A stretch of 32,000 bases of DNA. It comes from Promethearchaeia archaeon (lineage in GTDB: Archaea > Asgardarchaeota > Lokiarchaeia > Sigyniarchaeales > SOKP01). This document shows positions 26,365 through 32,000 of this stretch, piece after piece. Position numbers and translations under genes: made by a program. The stretch is from NCBI GenBank assembly GCA_046497275.1, contig JAWOFX010000096.1, forward strand, positions 1 through 32,000. Reading direction: 5' to 3'. The notes beneath the pieces are model-generated. The model was given only the letters and a program-made list of their open reading frames with translations. It ran no database searches and was not told the DNA's origin. Position 1 is the first letter of the stretch, and each line of letters starts with the position of its first letter.

Positions 26365-26683
26365 GATTATATTTCAATCGAATCGTATTCGTTATTTTAA
26401 ATGGTATAATTAAATACTTACAAATAGATATTAACAAATGCGATTATAAAATACTTCTTTTTACATGTTTAGATTAATATCAATTTTATATATTTTAAAT
26501 AAAGATGTGGTTCTTATCCTTATTGAAATAAAAAATGAAAAAAACAATTTATTCTTAATTATAAAAGATAAGCGAGATCTTAGTCCTTATTTTCTCATTT
26601 TTTTTAAAATTCCATATTCAACAAAAAAGTTATTATTAAATATTAATTTTTTAATATATTCAAACGAGCTAAGCGTGAAAATT

Positions 26684-27484
26684 ATGAATTTAGGAAAAAA
26701 CATAAGAATTGAAAGAATAATTGATAGAGAATCGAGAAGAACAATAATTATACCTATGGATCATGGAATGAGTGTCGGTACCATAAAAGGACTGGAGGAT
26801 ATGGCTTCTGTGGTTGATAAAGTTGCTCTTGGGGGGGCGAATGCGGTTCTTGAACATTCAGGTATGGTAGGTGCCGGACATCGACAATATGGTAAAGATA
26901 TAGGCTTAATAATACATTTATCTGGAGCAACAAAATTAGCCCCTGATCCAAATAAAAAAGTGCTTGTTTGTAGTGTTGAAAGAGCGTTAAAAATGGGCGC
27001 AGATGCAGTTTCCATTCATATAAATATTGGTGCAGATGATGAACCTGAAATGCTTGAAGACGCTAAACAAGTTGTTGAATCGTGCAGAGAATGGGGAGTG
27101 CCATTATTAGCCATGATGTACCCTAGAGGACGAAAAATAGAAGATGAGAATGATCCAGAAGTTGTAAATATTGCTGTGCGTGTTGGCGCTGAAATAGGTG
27201 CAGATATTGTTAAAACAAATTATACTGGAGATATTGATTCTTTCAAATATATTGTCAAGGGCGTTCATATTCCAGTAATAATAGCAGGTGGACCTAAAAT
27301 GGATACTACAGAAGAATTATTACAAATGGTTTATGATTCAATACAAGCAGGTGGTACTGGGGTAGCATTTGGCAGAAATGTATTTCAAGCAACAGATCCA
27401 ACCAACTTAGTAAGAGCCATTTCGGAAATCGTCCATAAAAACCACACAATAGAAGAAATTATGAAAAATCATACATTTGGTTAA
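26684..27484 (+). CDS. aroA': 2-amino-3,7-dideoxy-D-threo-hept-6-ulosonate (ADH) synthase / DhnA-type class I aldolase
   Basis: [52 protein letters not shown] (Schiff-base Lys), AGGPK, GRNVFQ, close to the MJ0400 pattern. Start reassigned to ATG 26684, with a TATA-like tract about 30 bp upstream. Confidence 0.8.
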
Positions 27485-27596: not shown

Positions 27597-28901
27597 ATGG
27601 AAAAACATAAAATATTTCCTTTACTTTTAAATAAGCTTAACAATTTCGAAGAGATTAAAAATAAGTCAGCAAATAATATTGAAAATGACTTAGATCATAA
27701 TGGATTGAAAATAATTATTAGTTTTAAAACAATTGAAGAGAGAGAAAAATTTTTATCAGAAATGAAAAATTTCCAAATTTTAGATAAATTTGATCTGATT
27801 CCATCAATTTCCACTCAAACTTCTTTAAAAGAAATAAAACGGCTCTCTAAGAATGAATTAGTCTCCCAAATAGAAGAGGATCAAAAACTCTTTACGTCGA
27901 GTTATGAAATATTAGATTTTTTGAATCTAAATGAATATAAAAGATCTCAATTAAATTATACTGGAAAAGGTATCAATATTGGGATAATCGATACAATCAT
28001 TCAAAGTTATTATCAAAGCTTTTATCGTACGGGTATTGATGGAAATTATATAGTTTTCGAGAAAAATGAAAAGAAAGAATTGAAAAAAAGAGAAAAAATC
28101 TCACACGGTACTTTAAGCGCAAATTTGATTATAAATCAACTTAAAGACAAGGAGGATTTTAGGTTAGGAATCGCTCCTGATGTTCATTTGTACGATCTAA
28201 GTCTCTATAAAAAAGAAAATTTTTATTTTTCTGATATTCTTCACCAACTTGACAAAATTAGAACCCAAAAATTCCCGATAGATATTCTTTTAATTAATTT
28301 TTCTACTTCTGAAGCATCTGATGGAAATGATATATTATCAAATGCTTGCAACGAATTAAGTAAAAAAGAAGAGATAATAATAGTTGTCCCTGCTGGAAAT
28401 TCTGGATTAAAACTAAATACAATAGGTAGTCCTGGAGCATCTTCAGAAGTTATTACTGTTGGAAGTATAGATTATAGTGGTAAAATCTCTAATTTTTCAA
28501 GAAAAAATATATCTATTAATAATGGGGTTAAACCAGATATGTTTTTTCCAGGTTCAAAAATTCAAATTAAATTGGAAAAGAATTTCAATCTTGAAGTATC
28601 GGGAACTAGTTTTTCAGCAGCAATTGCTACAGGTTTTATAGCATTATTGAAAGAATATGATAATACTCTAACAAGTGAAGAAATAAAAAAGAAATTTAAT
28701 CAATACTATAATATTTTTGGAAAAAATGTAAATGCAGTAAGATTTTTCAAATTAAATTCGCTTTTTTATCCCAATTTAGTTTCATATAGATATCTATTAA
28801 AAAGATCATTATGGGTTTCCCTTCAAATTCTAATAATCATAATTGTTTTATTTTTCTGGAAAGAGATATATCATTTAATTCGATTAATCTATGGATTTTA
28901 A
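27597..28901 (+). CDS. S8 (subtilisin-like) serine peptidase with prodomain and C-terminal membrane anchor
   Basis: IGIIDT (Asp), SHGT (His), VPAGNSG (oxyanion Asn), SGTSFS (Ser), KPDMFFPG, I9-like N-terminus, C-terminal hydrophobic helix. Confidence 0.88.
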   Translation: MEKHKIFPLLLNKLNNFEEIKNKSANNIENDLDHNGLKIIISFKTIEEREKFLSEMKNFQILDKFDLIPSISTQTSLKEIKRLSKNELVSQIEEDQKLFTSSYEILDFLNLNEYKRSQLNYTGKGINIGIIDTIIQSYYQSFYRTGIDGNYIVFEKNEKKELKKREKISHGTLSANLIINQLKDKEDFRLGIAPDVHLYDLSLYKKENFYFSDILHQLDKIRTQKFPIDILLINFSTSEASDGNDILSNACNELSKKEEIIIVVPAGNSGLKLNTIGSPGASSEVITVGSIDYSGKISNFSRKNISINNGVKPDMFFPGSKIQIKLEKNFNLEVSGTSFSAAIATGFIALLKEYDNTLTSEEIKKKFNQYYNIFGKNVNAVRFFKLNSLFYPNLVSYRYLLKRSLWVSLQILIIIIVLFFWKEIYHLIRLIYGF

Positions 28902-29772: not shown

Positions 29773-29985
29773 AAGAAGATAGATCTATTTATAATAACTA
29801 AACGATAAAATTTGTTGATTGAAAAAAGCAAAAGAAAAAAATTATAAAAAGTTTTTATATCTTCTATATAAAATAATCTAAAATCCATAGAGTAATCATA
29901 TTAAATTATATATCTCCCAATTTTTGAAGTTATAAGTAAAATATTTACTCTTTTTCTTTAAATAGATATATTATATTTTGATAGT

Positions 29986-32000
29986 ATGAGTATTTTTAAT
30001 TATCTTAAAATAGATAAAATTTTTTACCCTGAATGTGGTTGCTCCTTTTCTTTGCGCGAACGACAAATAGAGATAGCAAACTTTTACTGTCCAGAATGTG
30101 GAAAAGATATTAATATTGAGGCTTATTTTAGAAAAAATGAAAGCGAGAATTCAATATTTAGCAATAAAAATTACTTATTGGATGATATTAACTATATATT
30201 TAATTTAAAAGAGAAGAAATTTACAGAAATAAAACATTCAAAAAAATTTTGTGCCAATGCGTCTAATAGAGATTCAAAGTTCTTTCCAAATATATCAGAT
30301 AATAAGAATTTGAATAAATTTGCTTTTAATGGTAAGGAGGATTATGCTAATTACCTAAATAATGAAATCATAAATCATCTTAATGAAAAATACAGTTTAG
30401 ATTCAAAATATGTCCCTACAATATGTGAACTCGTTAAGGAAGGCTATATTCAATTCATTAAGGCTTTTTATGAGAATGGGTTAAAATATTCAGAAATTAT
30501 AAGTAAACTTAACCTTAGCCAAAAAAGAGTATATCGAAAGAAATCGATTAAAAATCTAGCTAATGAATTAATACATATAACCCAATGTTTGCGTGAGGTC
30601 TTGGATCTAAAGTTTCATCAAGCACCGAACCCAAATCAATTAATAAATTTAGGTTATAGAGGCTTTGTGGTTTTTTTGCAGAAATATAATTTTAATTATG
30701 TTGATATTGTGAATGAAGCGGGGTTAGAATATAGAAATTGGAAATCAGATTTACTCAATTTTGAAGACATGTTAGAATTAGCAAGCGAAAAAGAAATTAT
30801 ATTTCCTTATACTCGTGAAACATTCGAAAAAATGATTAAAAATCGATCTACCTCTCCAAGTCATATTAAATTCAATTGGATTTGTCCGGATCATGGAGTT
30901 TGGAAAACAACTTACAATACTTTGATAAATACTAAATATGGATGCCCTGACTGTTATCGAGAATCATTGAGTCTAAAATATATGGATTGTGTTAAATTGG
31001 CTAAGTCTAAAGGAGCAATATTCGCGATGTCGAATGAAGAATTTGAAACCGCTAAATTTAAAGAAATTTTGGATTCTCAAAATGAAAAGAGAAAACCAAA
31101 AACAACTTCTAAAATTCCTCTTGTATGGGAATGCAAACAACATGGAAAATGGGAAACAACCTATAATGTATTAAAAAATACTGCTATAGGATGCCCCATT
31201 TGTGCTTTGGAAATTTGGAAGGAAAAGATTTCTATTTCATATGAAGATTATTATAAATTAGGTTTAGTGAGAGATGATTTGAATTGTGTCATAGATGAAG
31301 ATCTGTTTCAAGAGAGGATTTCTTCGACGGATACTCCCCCTAGCTTGGTTCATTTACCATGGAAATGTACTGCTAATCATAATCATGGTATTTGGTTAGC
31401 TCCATATTCTAGAATTAAACGAGGACATGGATGTCCTTACTGTCAAGAGAGAATTAGAGTGATAGGAATTTTGACACACCCAATTTTAGAATATTATTCT
31501 ATTAAATTTTTAAGATTGAAAAATTGTAATGTTAATTACGAAAGAGAAGTAATGGTCAAAGATGGATACCATCCCGATTTATTTATTAGCAGAGACTTAA
31601 AATTTATCAAAAAAATTGAAAAAAATCAGTATATTATACAATTCCCCGATCATATTAGCGAAATTTCGATTGATTTTACATTTTCTTTAGAGGATAAAAT
31701 AATCCTACAAAAATGTTTTAAGAATTATCAATCTAAGTTTAGATATCTTCTAATAATTCTGTTAAGAGAGAATGAATATGCTTCAAAAGATATTTTTCAA
31801 AATATAATTGATGTTAATGAAGAAATATTCATGCCCAAACACATTAAAGTTATAAATCTTAAGGATTATAAGGAATTCTTAATGCCCAAATTATTATGTA
31901 CTCCCAGAGAGATAGAGGTACTTAGTAAATTATCAAAAGCTCAAAAGTTAGGGATAGAAGCGATTAATTCAGATAAAAAATTTACTGAACTAATAATGCA
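29986..32000 (+). CDS. Large (>671 aa, 3'-truncated) modular protein: Zn ribbon, 2 helical repeats, 3 Zn-ribbon repeats, putative PD-(D/E)XK-like domain
   Basis: Hand-translated open frame from ATG 29986 to the window end, absent from the ORF track. FYCPECG; three W.C..HG.W...Y.....GCP.C units; YERE...HPDLFI...ISIDFT...KCFKNY. Confidence 0.88.
   Translation, partial: MSIFNYLKIDKIFYPECGCSFSLRERQIEIANFYCPECGKDINIEAYFRKNESENSIFSNKNYLLDDINYIFNLKEKKFTEIKHSKKFCANASNRDSKFFPNISDNKNLNKFAFNGKEDYANYLNNEIINHLNEKYSLDSKYVPTICELVKEGYIQFIKAFYENGLKYSEIISKLNLSQKRVYRKKSIKNLANELIHITQCLREVLDLKFHQAPNPNQLINLGYRGFVVFLQKYNFNYVDIVNEAGLEYRNWKSDLLNFEDMLELASEKEIIFPYTRETFEKMIKNRSTSPSHIKFNWICPDHGVWKTTYNTLINTKYGCPDCYRESLSLKYMDCVKLAKSKGAIFAMSNEEFETAKFKEILDSQNEKRKPKTTSKIPLVWECKQHGKWETTYNVLKNTAIGCPICALEIWKEKISISYEDYYKLGLVRDDLNCVIDEDLFQERISSTDTPPSLVHLPWKCTANHNHGIWLAPYSRIKRGHGCPYCQERIRVIGILTHPILEYYSIKFLRLKNCNVNYEREVMVKDGYHPDLFISRDLKFIKKIEKNQYIIQFPDHISEISIDFTFSLEDKIILQKCFKNYQSKFRYLLIILLRENEYASKDIFQNIIDVNEEIFMPKHIKVINLKDYKEFLMPKLLCTPREIEVLSKLSKAQKLGIEAINSDKKFTELIM

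Follow-up and report, generated by a model that had tools for sequence, protein, structure and literature searches.

A zinc-module and helical-repeat array joined to a variant PD-(D/E)XK-fold domain: a candidate modular nuclease family in Promethearchaeota

The stretch of DNA analysed here, hereafter the window, covers positions 1 to 32,000 of contig JAWOFX010000096.1 (GenBank assembly GCA_046497275.1) from a Promethearchaeia archaeon with a genome of 3.85 Mb and roughly 30% guanine–cytosine (GC) content. The gene under study lies at its right-hand edge and encodes a modular protein of 683 amino acids (aa), termed P0001. The first-pass annotation, made from the letters of the window, had noticed an unlisted open reading frame (ORF) of more than 671 aa at this position. 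The frame is real: it begins with ATG at 29986 on the forward strand, stays open through 32000 (671 aa inside the window), and is completed by downstream contig sequence at 32037, 37 nt beyond the window, with a stop codon at 32038–32040. The residue numbers proposed for its C-terminus (E519, P530-D531, I-S-I-D563-F-T565, K576-C-F-K579-N-Y581) were likewise correct. The gene stands free between xpf and an acyl-CoA dehydrogenase gene (acd), with an S8 subtilase gene as a further neighbour. From N- to C-terminus, P0001 comprises a putative zinc ribbon, two helical repeats, three zinc modules, and a nuclease-fold module (Table 1).

Structural models and comparisons assign the last 195 residues of P0001 to the restriction-endonuclease fold, as a domain whose sequence family had not been described before. 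The AlphaFold2 (AF2) model of this module (predicted local distance difference test, pLDDT, 90.9; predicted template modelling score, pTM, 0.89) displays an alpha-beta-beta-beta-alpha-beta core. A long helix leads into three strands, the second and third separated by a helical insert, then a helix, strand 4, and further elements (H2-27, E31-32, E48-51, E75-81, H86-93, E102-108 in the model; H, helix; E, strand), and a helical hairpin at residues 640–682 closes the module. The top rows of a Foldseek search were R2 RLE (probability 0.97), EcoO109I, PspGI, NgoMIV, EcoT38I, R.BspD6I, and Can2; Rpb5, a restriction-fold protein that is not a DNase, was a further match. VIA, a search independent of Foldseek, returned the Can2 nuclease domain (Z 7.4; 117 aa, 3.0 Å), AF1548 (Z 6.7), the R.BspD6I small subunit (Z 6.2), BsaWI (Z 6.0), Bse634I, PaqCI, and the Avs3 nuclease domain (each Z 5.8), SgrAI (Z 5.6), and BglII (Z 5.5), with helical-bundle noise, caused by the C-terminal hairpin, scattered among them. 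A shape search of ESM-Atlas led to PDDEXK_4, pPIWI_RE_REase, and CoiA_nuc clusters, while a feature search of the same resource reached 0.86, under its trust level, and gave DUF4379, DUF559, and DUF7487 clusters as a lead only. All structural matches of the module other than helical bundles are PD-(D/E)XK nucleases. The fold assignment is consistent between Foldseek, VIA, and ESM-Atlas, though no single score is high. A restriction-endonuclease-like fold had been named in the first-pass annotation as one point on which its proposal would stand or fall, and the AF2 core and these matches uphold it. A homodimer prediction for the module scored 0.00 and was uninformative either way.

We next counted residue conservation over 125 family members covering the nuclease module. 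The resulting signature, G-x3-H-x3-E / E / (P)D / D-x-T / K-x2-(K/R)-x-Y-Q, begins on helix 1 with G494 (122/125), H498 (124/125), and E502 (112/125), the last two lying one turn apart in the AF2 model. It continues with E519 on strand 1 (119/125), D531 at the start of strand 2 (99 D and 12 N), and D563 on strand 3 (122 D and 3 E). K576 follows on helix 2, after strand 3 (110 K and 15 H), and the loop before strand 4 carries K/R579 (125/125), Y581 (124/125), and Q582 (105/125). P530-D531 directly precedes model strand E48-51, and D531 and D563/T565 sit at the canonical PD and (D/E)xK strand places. Position 565, where the canonical lysine would stand, is T in 78 members and otherwise Y, F, S, or H, never K. 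The module would thus have to be a 'PD-DXX-K'-type variant with its lysine, K576, on helix 2. This pattern fits the suggestion in the first-pass annotation of a D-x-T site with a possibly relocated lysine.

Such migration has precedent. A lysine moved to the same helix is documented for Pa4535 (PD-EXX-K), and other catalytic residues have migrated in EcoO109I ('EPD-XXK') and in Cfr10I/Bse634I (PMC3424549). These variants and the P0001 module share the core, an aspartate opening strand 2, a strand-3 acid, a helix-1 glutamate, and a lysine apparently drawn from the second core helix; two of them, EcoO109I and Bse634I, also appear in the lists of structural matches. The P0001 module differs in an additional invariant histidine (H498) and the K/R-x-Y-Q motif, and its activity is a prediction only. 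It has no sequence-detectable relation to solved structures or Pfam families: a sequence profile search of the PDB gave chance matches only, and Pfam, NCBIfam, PADLOC, and PHROGs held no match. The closest structure, the Can2/Card1-type CRISPR ancillary nuclease (PDB 8q3y, 7bdv), resembles the module at the level of fold only, since P0001 has no CARF sensor, no CRISPR context, and 13% identity to it.

Upstream of the nuclease module lie three zinc modules, whose cores fall exactly where the first-pass annotation had placed them (nt 30877–30954, 31126–31203, and 31360–31443). The first consists of a helical part and a treble-clef core, W-x-C-x2-H...C-x2-C, and the C/H...C-x2-C ligands are present in all three cores. 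The first two modules form the best ungapped internal match in P0001 (BLOSUM score 106). Membership in the CapR/DUF4379/DUF723 treble-clef group follows from two Pfam models above their curated cut-offs: DUF4379 in three stretches (E 1.3e-8; 35.3 bits, cut-off 24.5) and DUF723 (E 3.2e-6; 27.4 bits, cut-off 20.9). CapR, at 20.4 bits, stayed under its cut-off of 24.2. The zinc region also matches phrog_681, labelled 'endonuclease', at 1.6e-9. In a recently described family, arrays of three to five such domains of ~60 aa each, interpreted as DNA-binding modules, are combined with an EDxHD/Vsr nuclease in homing endonucleases (PMC12350094), and a giant-virus protein carries four DUF4379 domains with a restriction-endonuclease domain (PMC5513546).

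N-terminal to the zinc modules, P0001 carries a tandem helical repeat. The first-pass annotation had aligned two segments of 49 aa (129–177 and 199–247) without gaps, and the repeat is robust: the segments share 11/49 identities, their score of 38 corresponds to z = 5.1 against all ungapped 49-mer pairs and was reached by 0/5000 shuffles, and an iterated profile finds each unit at E of about 1e-15. The AF2 model of the two repeats shows one long helix and three short helices per unit. The core measures about 51 aa within a unit of roughly 75 residues, and the period is 70–90 aa. Scaffold positions are conserved (L7/P13/L18/G22/F26/A29/I35/Y37/N38/G45) and surface positions are variable. The iterated profile detected the repeat in 72/172 family proteins, in one to six copies each. 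It is a new repeat, and the commonest partner of the nuclease module in the family.

Comparison with known folds yielded little for this repeat. Foldseek returned nothing at E ≤ 1 with the repeat model, and the best VIA match (Z 4.7; the winged-helix-like Slx4 CCD) was not significant. Pfam PF18780 (HNH_repeat) and small helix-turn-helix or winged-helix bundles such as Slx4 CCD are likewise small helical units N-terminal to nucleases. Their likeness to the P0001 repeat is a weak similarity of shape, with an Atlas template modelling score of 0.35 for HNH_repeat, and leaves kinship unproven. A PF18780 search of the genome found no match on the helical repeats at E ≤ 10, and permissive scans of 41 repeat segments against Pfam returned noise, with 2/41 matching PF18780 at E 0.04. 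The first-pass annotation had stated that both kinds of module accompany homing-endonuclease-like genes; this stands for the zinc modules (PMC12350094), whereas for the helical repeats there are weak hints only. The N-terminal zinc ribbon it had reported is present but weak: the first knuckle reads YPECGC and is degenerate, where the homologue P0002 (55% identical) has CPDCG, Pfam and NCBIfam zinc-ribbon matches are sub-threshold, and among the close homologues P0002–P0005 only P0002 shares it with P0001. PADLOC gave a weak match to candidate PDC-M14A over residues 15–114 (E 7.8e-5).

Table 1. Coordinates of P0001, its modules and the flanking repeat (window numbering unless stated)
Feature	Residues	Position (nt)	Strand	Evidence
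P0001 coding sequence		29986..32000 (on to 32037)	+	ORF on contig
Putative zinc ribbon, YPECGC...CPECG	14-42	30025..30111	+	Sub-threshold zinc-ribbon matches only
Helical repeat unit 1	121-177	30346..30516	+	Iterated profile E 1.6e-15; AF2 pLDDT 95.4
Helical repeat unit 2	188-248	30547..30729	+	Iterated profile E 5.3e-16; two-repeat AF2 model
Zinc module 1	253-325 (core 298-323)	30742..30960	+	DUF723 300-323; phrog_681 'endonuclease' 291-327
Zinc module 2	327-408 (core 381-406)	30964..31209	+	CapR 376-407, below cut-off
Zinc module 3	413-488 (core 459-486)	31222..31449	+	DUF4379 457-488
PD-(D/E)XK-fold module (195 aa)	489-683	31450..32000 (on to 32037)	+	AF2 model and structure searches
33-nt imperfect direct repeat, upstream copy		29833..29865	+	Partner at contig 32142-32174

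The plan of P0001, zinc modules of ~60–80 aa followed by a restriction-superfold nuclease, is that of the EDxHD/Vsr homing endonucleases with CapR/DUF4379/DUF723 arrays (PMC12350094), whose genes are likewise unannotated and scattered. The prototype of their nuclease, for which the E-D-x-H-D motif was defined, is I-Bth0305I (PDB 3R3P; PMC3239194), and group I and group II intron homing endonuclease genes of phages carry the type with CapR arrays (PMC12350094). The same archaeal genome encodes a paralog of this kind (C162; L007:1474-3075, reverse strand), a 534-aa zinc-module array with a Vsr/DUF559-type nuclease (ELDGY...AFEFNGIQH) that matches phrog_559 'HNH endonuclease' at 5.6e-25 and phrog_681 at 1.4e-21; C162 is a true member of the described homing-type family. 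P0001, in contrast, replaces E-D-x-H-D with H-x3-E / E / PD / D-x-T / K-x2-K-x-YQ, adds a helical repeat array, and lies outside any intron or intein. It has no Pfam match to DUF559/Vsr at E ≤ 1, and hhalign gave a probability of 0.1% between its nuclease module and the Vsr-type module of its own genome. Because of this low probability and the missing EDxHD pattern, P0001 shares the plan and the zinc modules of the Vsr-type family, not its catalytic domain.

How widespread is the new module? We searched with a profile from alignment A1, made from the final ~200 residues of eight proteins: P0001, three of its own-genome paralogs, and four homologues from databases. Among 1.84 billion entries, 246 cluster representatives matched at E ≤ 1e-3 and 157 at E ≤ 1e-10, and in the matched proteins the nuclease module was almost always C-terminal. 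The N-terminal parts of 95 members were very diverse: DUF4379 occurred in 17, TopoV_HHH in 3, and nothing known in most. Cluster look-ups gave a single taxon label and no functional names for the representatives. The named relatives are all Promethearchaeota metagenome-assembled genomes (MAGs), and a pattern search based on a five-row alignment led to three Promethearchaeota MAG loci. Among 40 relatives, 13 of the 24 genomes from the same taxonomic family carry the module and none of the 16 from sister families does. In a 200-genome sample of the phylum, it occurred in 20/40 genomes of one Promethearchaeota family and in 0/160 from 26 others. Copy number in this sample ranged from 0 to 9 per genome. 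A literature search on CapR with treble clefs and on Asgard homing endonucleases found no description of the family.

The genome of P0001 holds four intact copies (P0001, C98, C141, and C59) and one remnant (C186). C98 has five zinc units. C59 (L005:6686-9376, forward strand) is an 897-aa protein with a multi-pass hydrophobic N-terminus, five helical repeats, and no zinc units; its nuclease module reads PN in place of PD, and it would be a membrane-anchored version of the putative DNA nuclease. C186 (25178-25832, reverse strand) is a pseudogene retaining only the last ~218 residues, the nuclease module; a TAA interrupts the KNYQ motif, and a frameshift lies at the end. Its syntenic counterpart in the same-genus genome G002 (L042:9350-11011, reverse strand) is intact, at 554 aa with three zinc units. 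The neighbours of all these copies are housekeeping or metabolic genes, with no methyltransferase, transposase, or integrase, and there is no adjacent cognate DNA methyltransferase of the type II restriction–modification kind beside the P0001 gene or its own-genome paralogs. Elsewhere, the P0001 orthologue P0003 is 46% identical; beside it lies a gene for a 1108-aa protein with a protein-kinase domain and a superfamily 1 (SF1) helicase (AAA_11/AAA_12; L036:2656-5982, forward strand), followed by one for a 670-aa protein without a Pfam match.

The first-pass annotation had also proposed comparing the xpf locus across relatives, and the site of the P0001 gene proved to be a variable slot. The order aldolase, subtilase, xpf, [slot], acd is conserved in three same-genus genomes, each at least 92% complete, and none of them has a P0001 relative in the slot. 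There, the slot holds small GTPases, or a 2-oxoacid-dehydrogenase-like gene and a small zinc-ribbon ORF. DNA homology ends at the ends of xpf and acd, and comparison with the three relatives revealed no recognisable insertion boundaries. We regard the slot as a gene-replacement hot spot. In another genome, P0004 (47% identical to P0001) lies downstream of subtilase, YdjM, and an xpf whose product is 63% identical, separated from xpf by ~4.5 kb of unrelated genes that include a leucine-rich repeat gene and an IS605 OrfB-HTH remnant. C141 is syntenic in another genus (G018), with 52% identity against 82% for its neighbour. Orthologues are therefore 47–52% identical where their neighbours are 63–82% identical, and synteny reaches across genera for P0004 and C141 and, within the genus, for C186. 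From the xpf-slot and C141 comparisons, the family appears mostly inherited in place, outpacing its surroundings in evolution and subject to repeated loss or degradation. This turnover fits the gain, decay, and loss cycle of free-standing selfish nucleases; a defence gene that the host can dispense with would fit too. We judged a functional link to xpf unsupported, since neither the other paralogs nor the three same-genus genomes share the association.

The first-pass annotation had seen no insertion sequence (IS) ends around the gene. This is mostly right, but a non-random imperfect direct repeat brackets it. The two 33-nt copies are 26/33 identical and 2309 nt apart, and their score was reached by 0/1000 shuffles and 0/600 real low-GC pairs. 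About six sites genome-wide match copy 1 at 26/33 or better, and the repeat is absent from the relatives' slots. The two copies may mark cassette or att-like ends; a regulatory element that both share is another possibility.

Other genes at this locus showed features of their own. The small GTPases in the relatives' slot are of the Arf/Gtr1-RagA type (L027:7510-8139, reverse strand; L029:4278-5345, forward strand); Arf/Rag-type GTPases are expected for Asgard archaea. The S8 subtilase (27597-28901, forward strand) has a C-terminal hydrophobic anchor and 43–51% identity to same-genus orthologues, against 81–84% for the aldolase that flanks it, and is a fast-evolving surface protease. The aldolase-like ORF (26465-27484, forward strand), listed at 339 aa, has a low-complexity N-terminal extension of ~70 aa; its true start is probably further downstream because orthologues in relatives measure 241–267 aa.

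We lean towards reading P0001 as a modular metal-dependent DNA endonuclease with zinc and helical targeting arrays, encoded by a homing-like, largely selfish gene. The molecular half, in which a variant PD-(D/E)XK nuclease carries fused arrays of zinc modules and helical repeats, is quite probable on the models and profiles. In the proposed mechanism, D531 and D563 would form the active site, with E502 and H498 from the first helix and E519 from strand 1 as additional metal ligands. The lysine would come from the second core helix (K576) and not from strand 3, where threonine sits. Target choice would lie with the N-terminal arrays, the three zinc modules, which are of the same kind that guides a large homing-endonuclease family, and the two helical repeats. 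The free-standing, homing-endonuclease-like, largely selfish gene is the least certain step and, even granting the molecular reading, stays tentative, at rather less than an even chance. It is drawn from a gene that appears non-essential, multi-copy, lineage-restricted, faster-evolving than its neighbours, placed by itself in a variable slot flanked by housekeeping genes, and prone to decay; the bracketing direct repeat and the lack of a neighbouring methyltransferase count on the same side. The biological role could be selfish, defensive, or host-related.

Several observations weigh against this account. Both the nuclease activity and the DNA binding of the family are predicted, and the clustering of the conserved residues in one site is presumed. 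The structural scores are modest, with the Can2 match the best and the long C-terminal helices adding noise, and Foldseek returned nothing at E ≤ 1e-3 for the module. Strand 3 lacks the (D/E)-x-K motif. DNA binding by the helical repeats is an assumption, made from their position and partner modules, because no significant structural or Pfam match stands behind it. As to a homing life-style, the gene is free-standing and does not reside in an intron or intein. Two peptide patterns found no relative in IMG/VR, though the patterns are narrow and the search does not establish absence from viruses. The several syntenic copies imply mostly vertical descent and loss, not frequent jumps. Flanking direct repeats were rejected as a family-wide feature, being present at 2/12 loci only.

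An unlikely alternative is that P0001 is a defence nuclease acting alone, either type IV-restriction-like or some other single-gene system: variable arrays would recognise DNA that is foreign or modified, and its destruction would fall to the PD-(D/E)XK module. The patchy distribution, the lineage-specific expansions (0–9 copies), the fast evolution, and the very variable N-terminal parts on a constant nuclease would all suit such a role, as would the weak PDC-M14A match and the missing cognate methyltransferase, a trait of type IV enzymes. The nearest folds also include the defence nucleases Can2, the Avs3 nuclease domain, and the pPIWI_RE REase. Against this, all five copies in the genome lie outside defence islands and have no partner gene beside them, the nuclease module goes unrecognised by PADLOC models, and the zinc modules have their other known occurrences in homing-type nucleases.

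Less likely again is a domesticated host enzyme. It might, for example, act with XPF as a site- or structure-specific nuclease during repair or recombination, or be a regulator that binds DNA and retains the nuclease fold. The shared position of P0001 and its 47%-identical orthologue downstream of an S8 protease gene and xpf, the synteny of several paralogs across genera, and the catalytic signature kept in about 125 divergent members point this way. Against it, the gene is missing from the xpf slot of the three same-genus genomes, about half of the sampled family genomes and all sampled genomes of 26 other families of the phylum gave no match, and the other paralogs adjoin unrelated metabolic genes. 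One copy is a pseudogene, and the ~4.5 kb of unrelated genes with the IS605 remnant separates the orthologue from xpf.

We consider it improbable that the C-terminal module is no DNA endonuclease but a catalytically dead DNA-binding scaffold or an RNA-directed enzyme: threonine does replace the canonical strand-3 lysine, Can2 is of a nuclease type that can also cut RNA, and some restriction-fold matches, such as Rpb5, are not DNases, but nine polar residues at or near the canonical catalytic sites hardly vary across a divergent family, which is not expected of a dead domain, and zinc modules like those fused here are known from homing enzymes that target DNA.

For the modular, homing-like endonuclease that we favour, one extension is more speculative. 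The helical units and zinc modules might be combinable DNA-reading modules of a few base pairs each, so that the family would amount to natural reprogrammable nucleases built on a new catalytic domain; we regard this as a long shot.

Taken together, the analysis defines a nuclease-domain family outside Pfam, PHROGs, and PADLOC, with ~246 cluster representatives so far, every labelled one from Promethearchaeota, an active-site signature that is non-canonical yet strongly conserved, and a new tandem helical repeat. In this family, the zinc-module targeting array familiar from Vsr-type homing endonucleases accompanies another catalytic module, unrelated to the Vsr-type one; comparable domain swaps occur elsewhere among modular nucleases. 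Should they prove active and site-specific, these proteins would enlarge the short list of modular nucleases found in nature and would serve as a marker for the turnover of selfish or defensive genes in the archaeal lineage nearest to eukaryotes.

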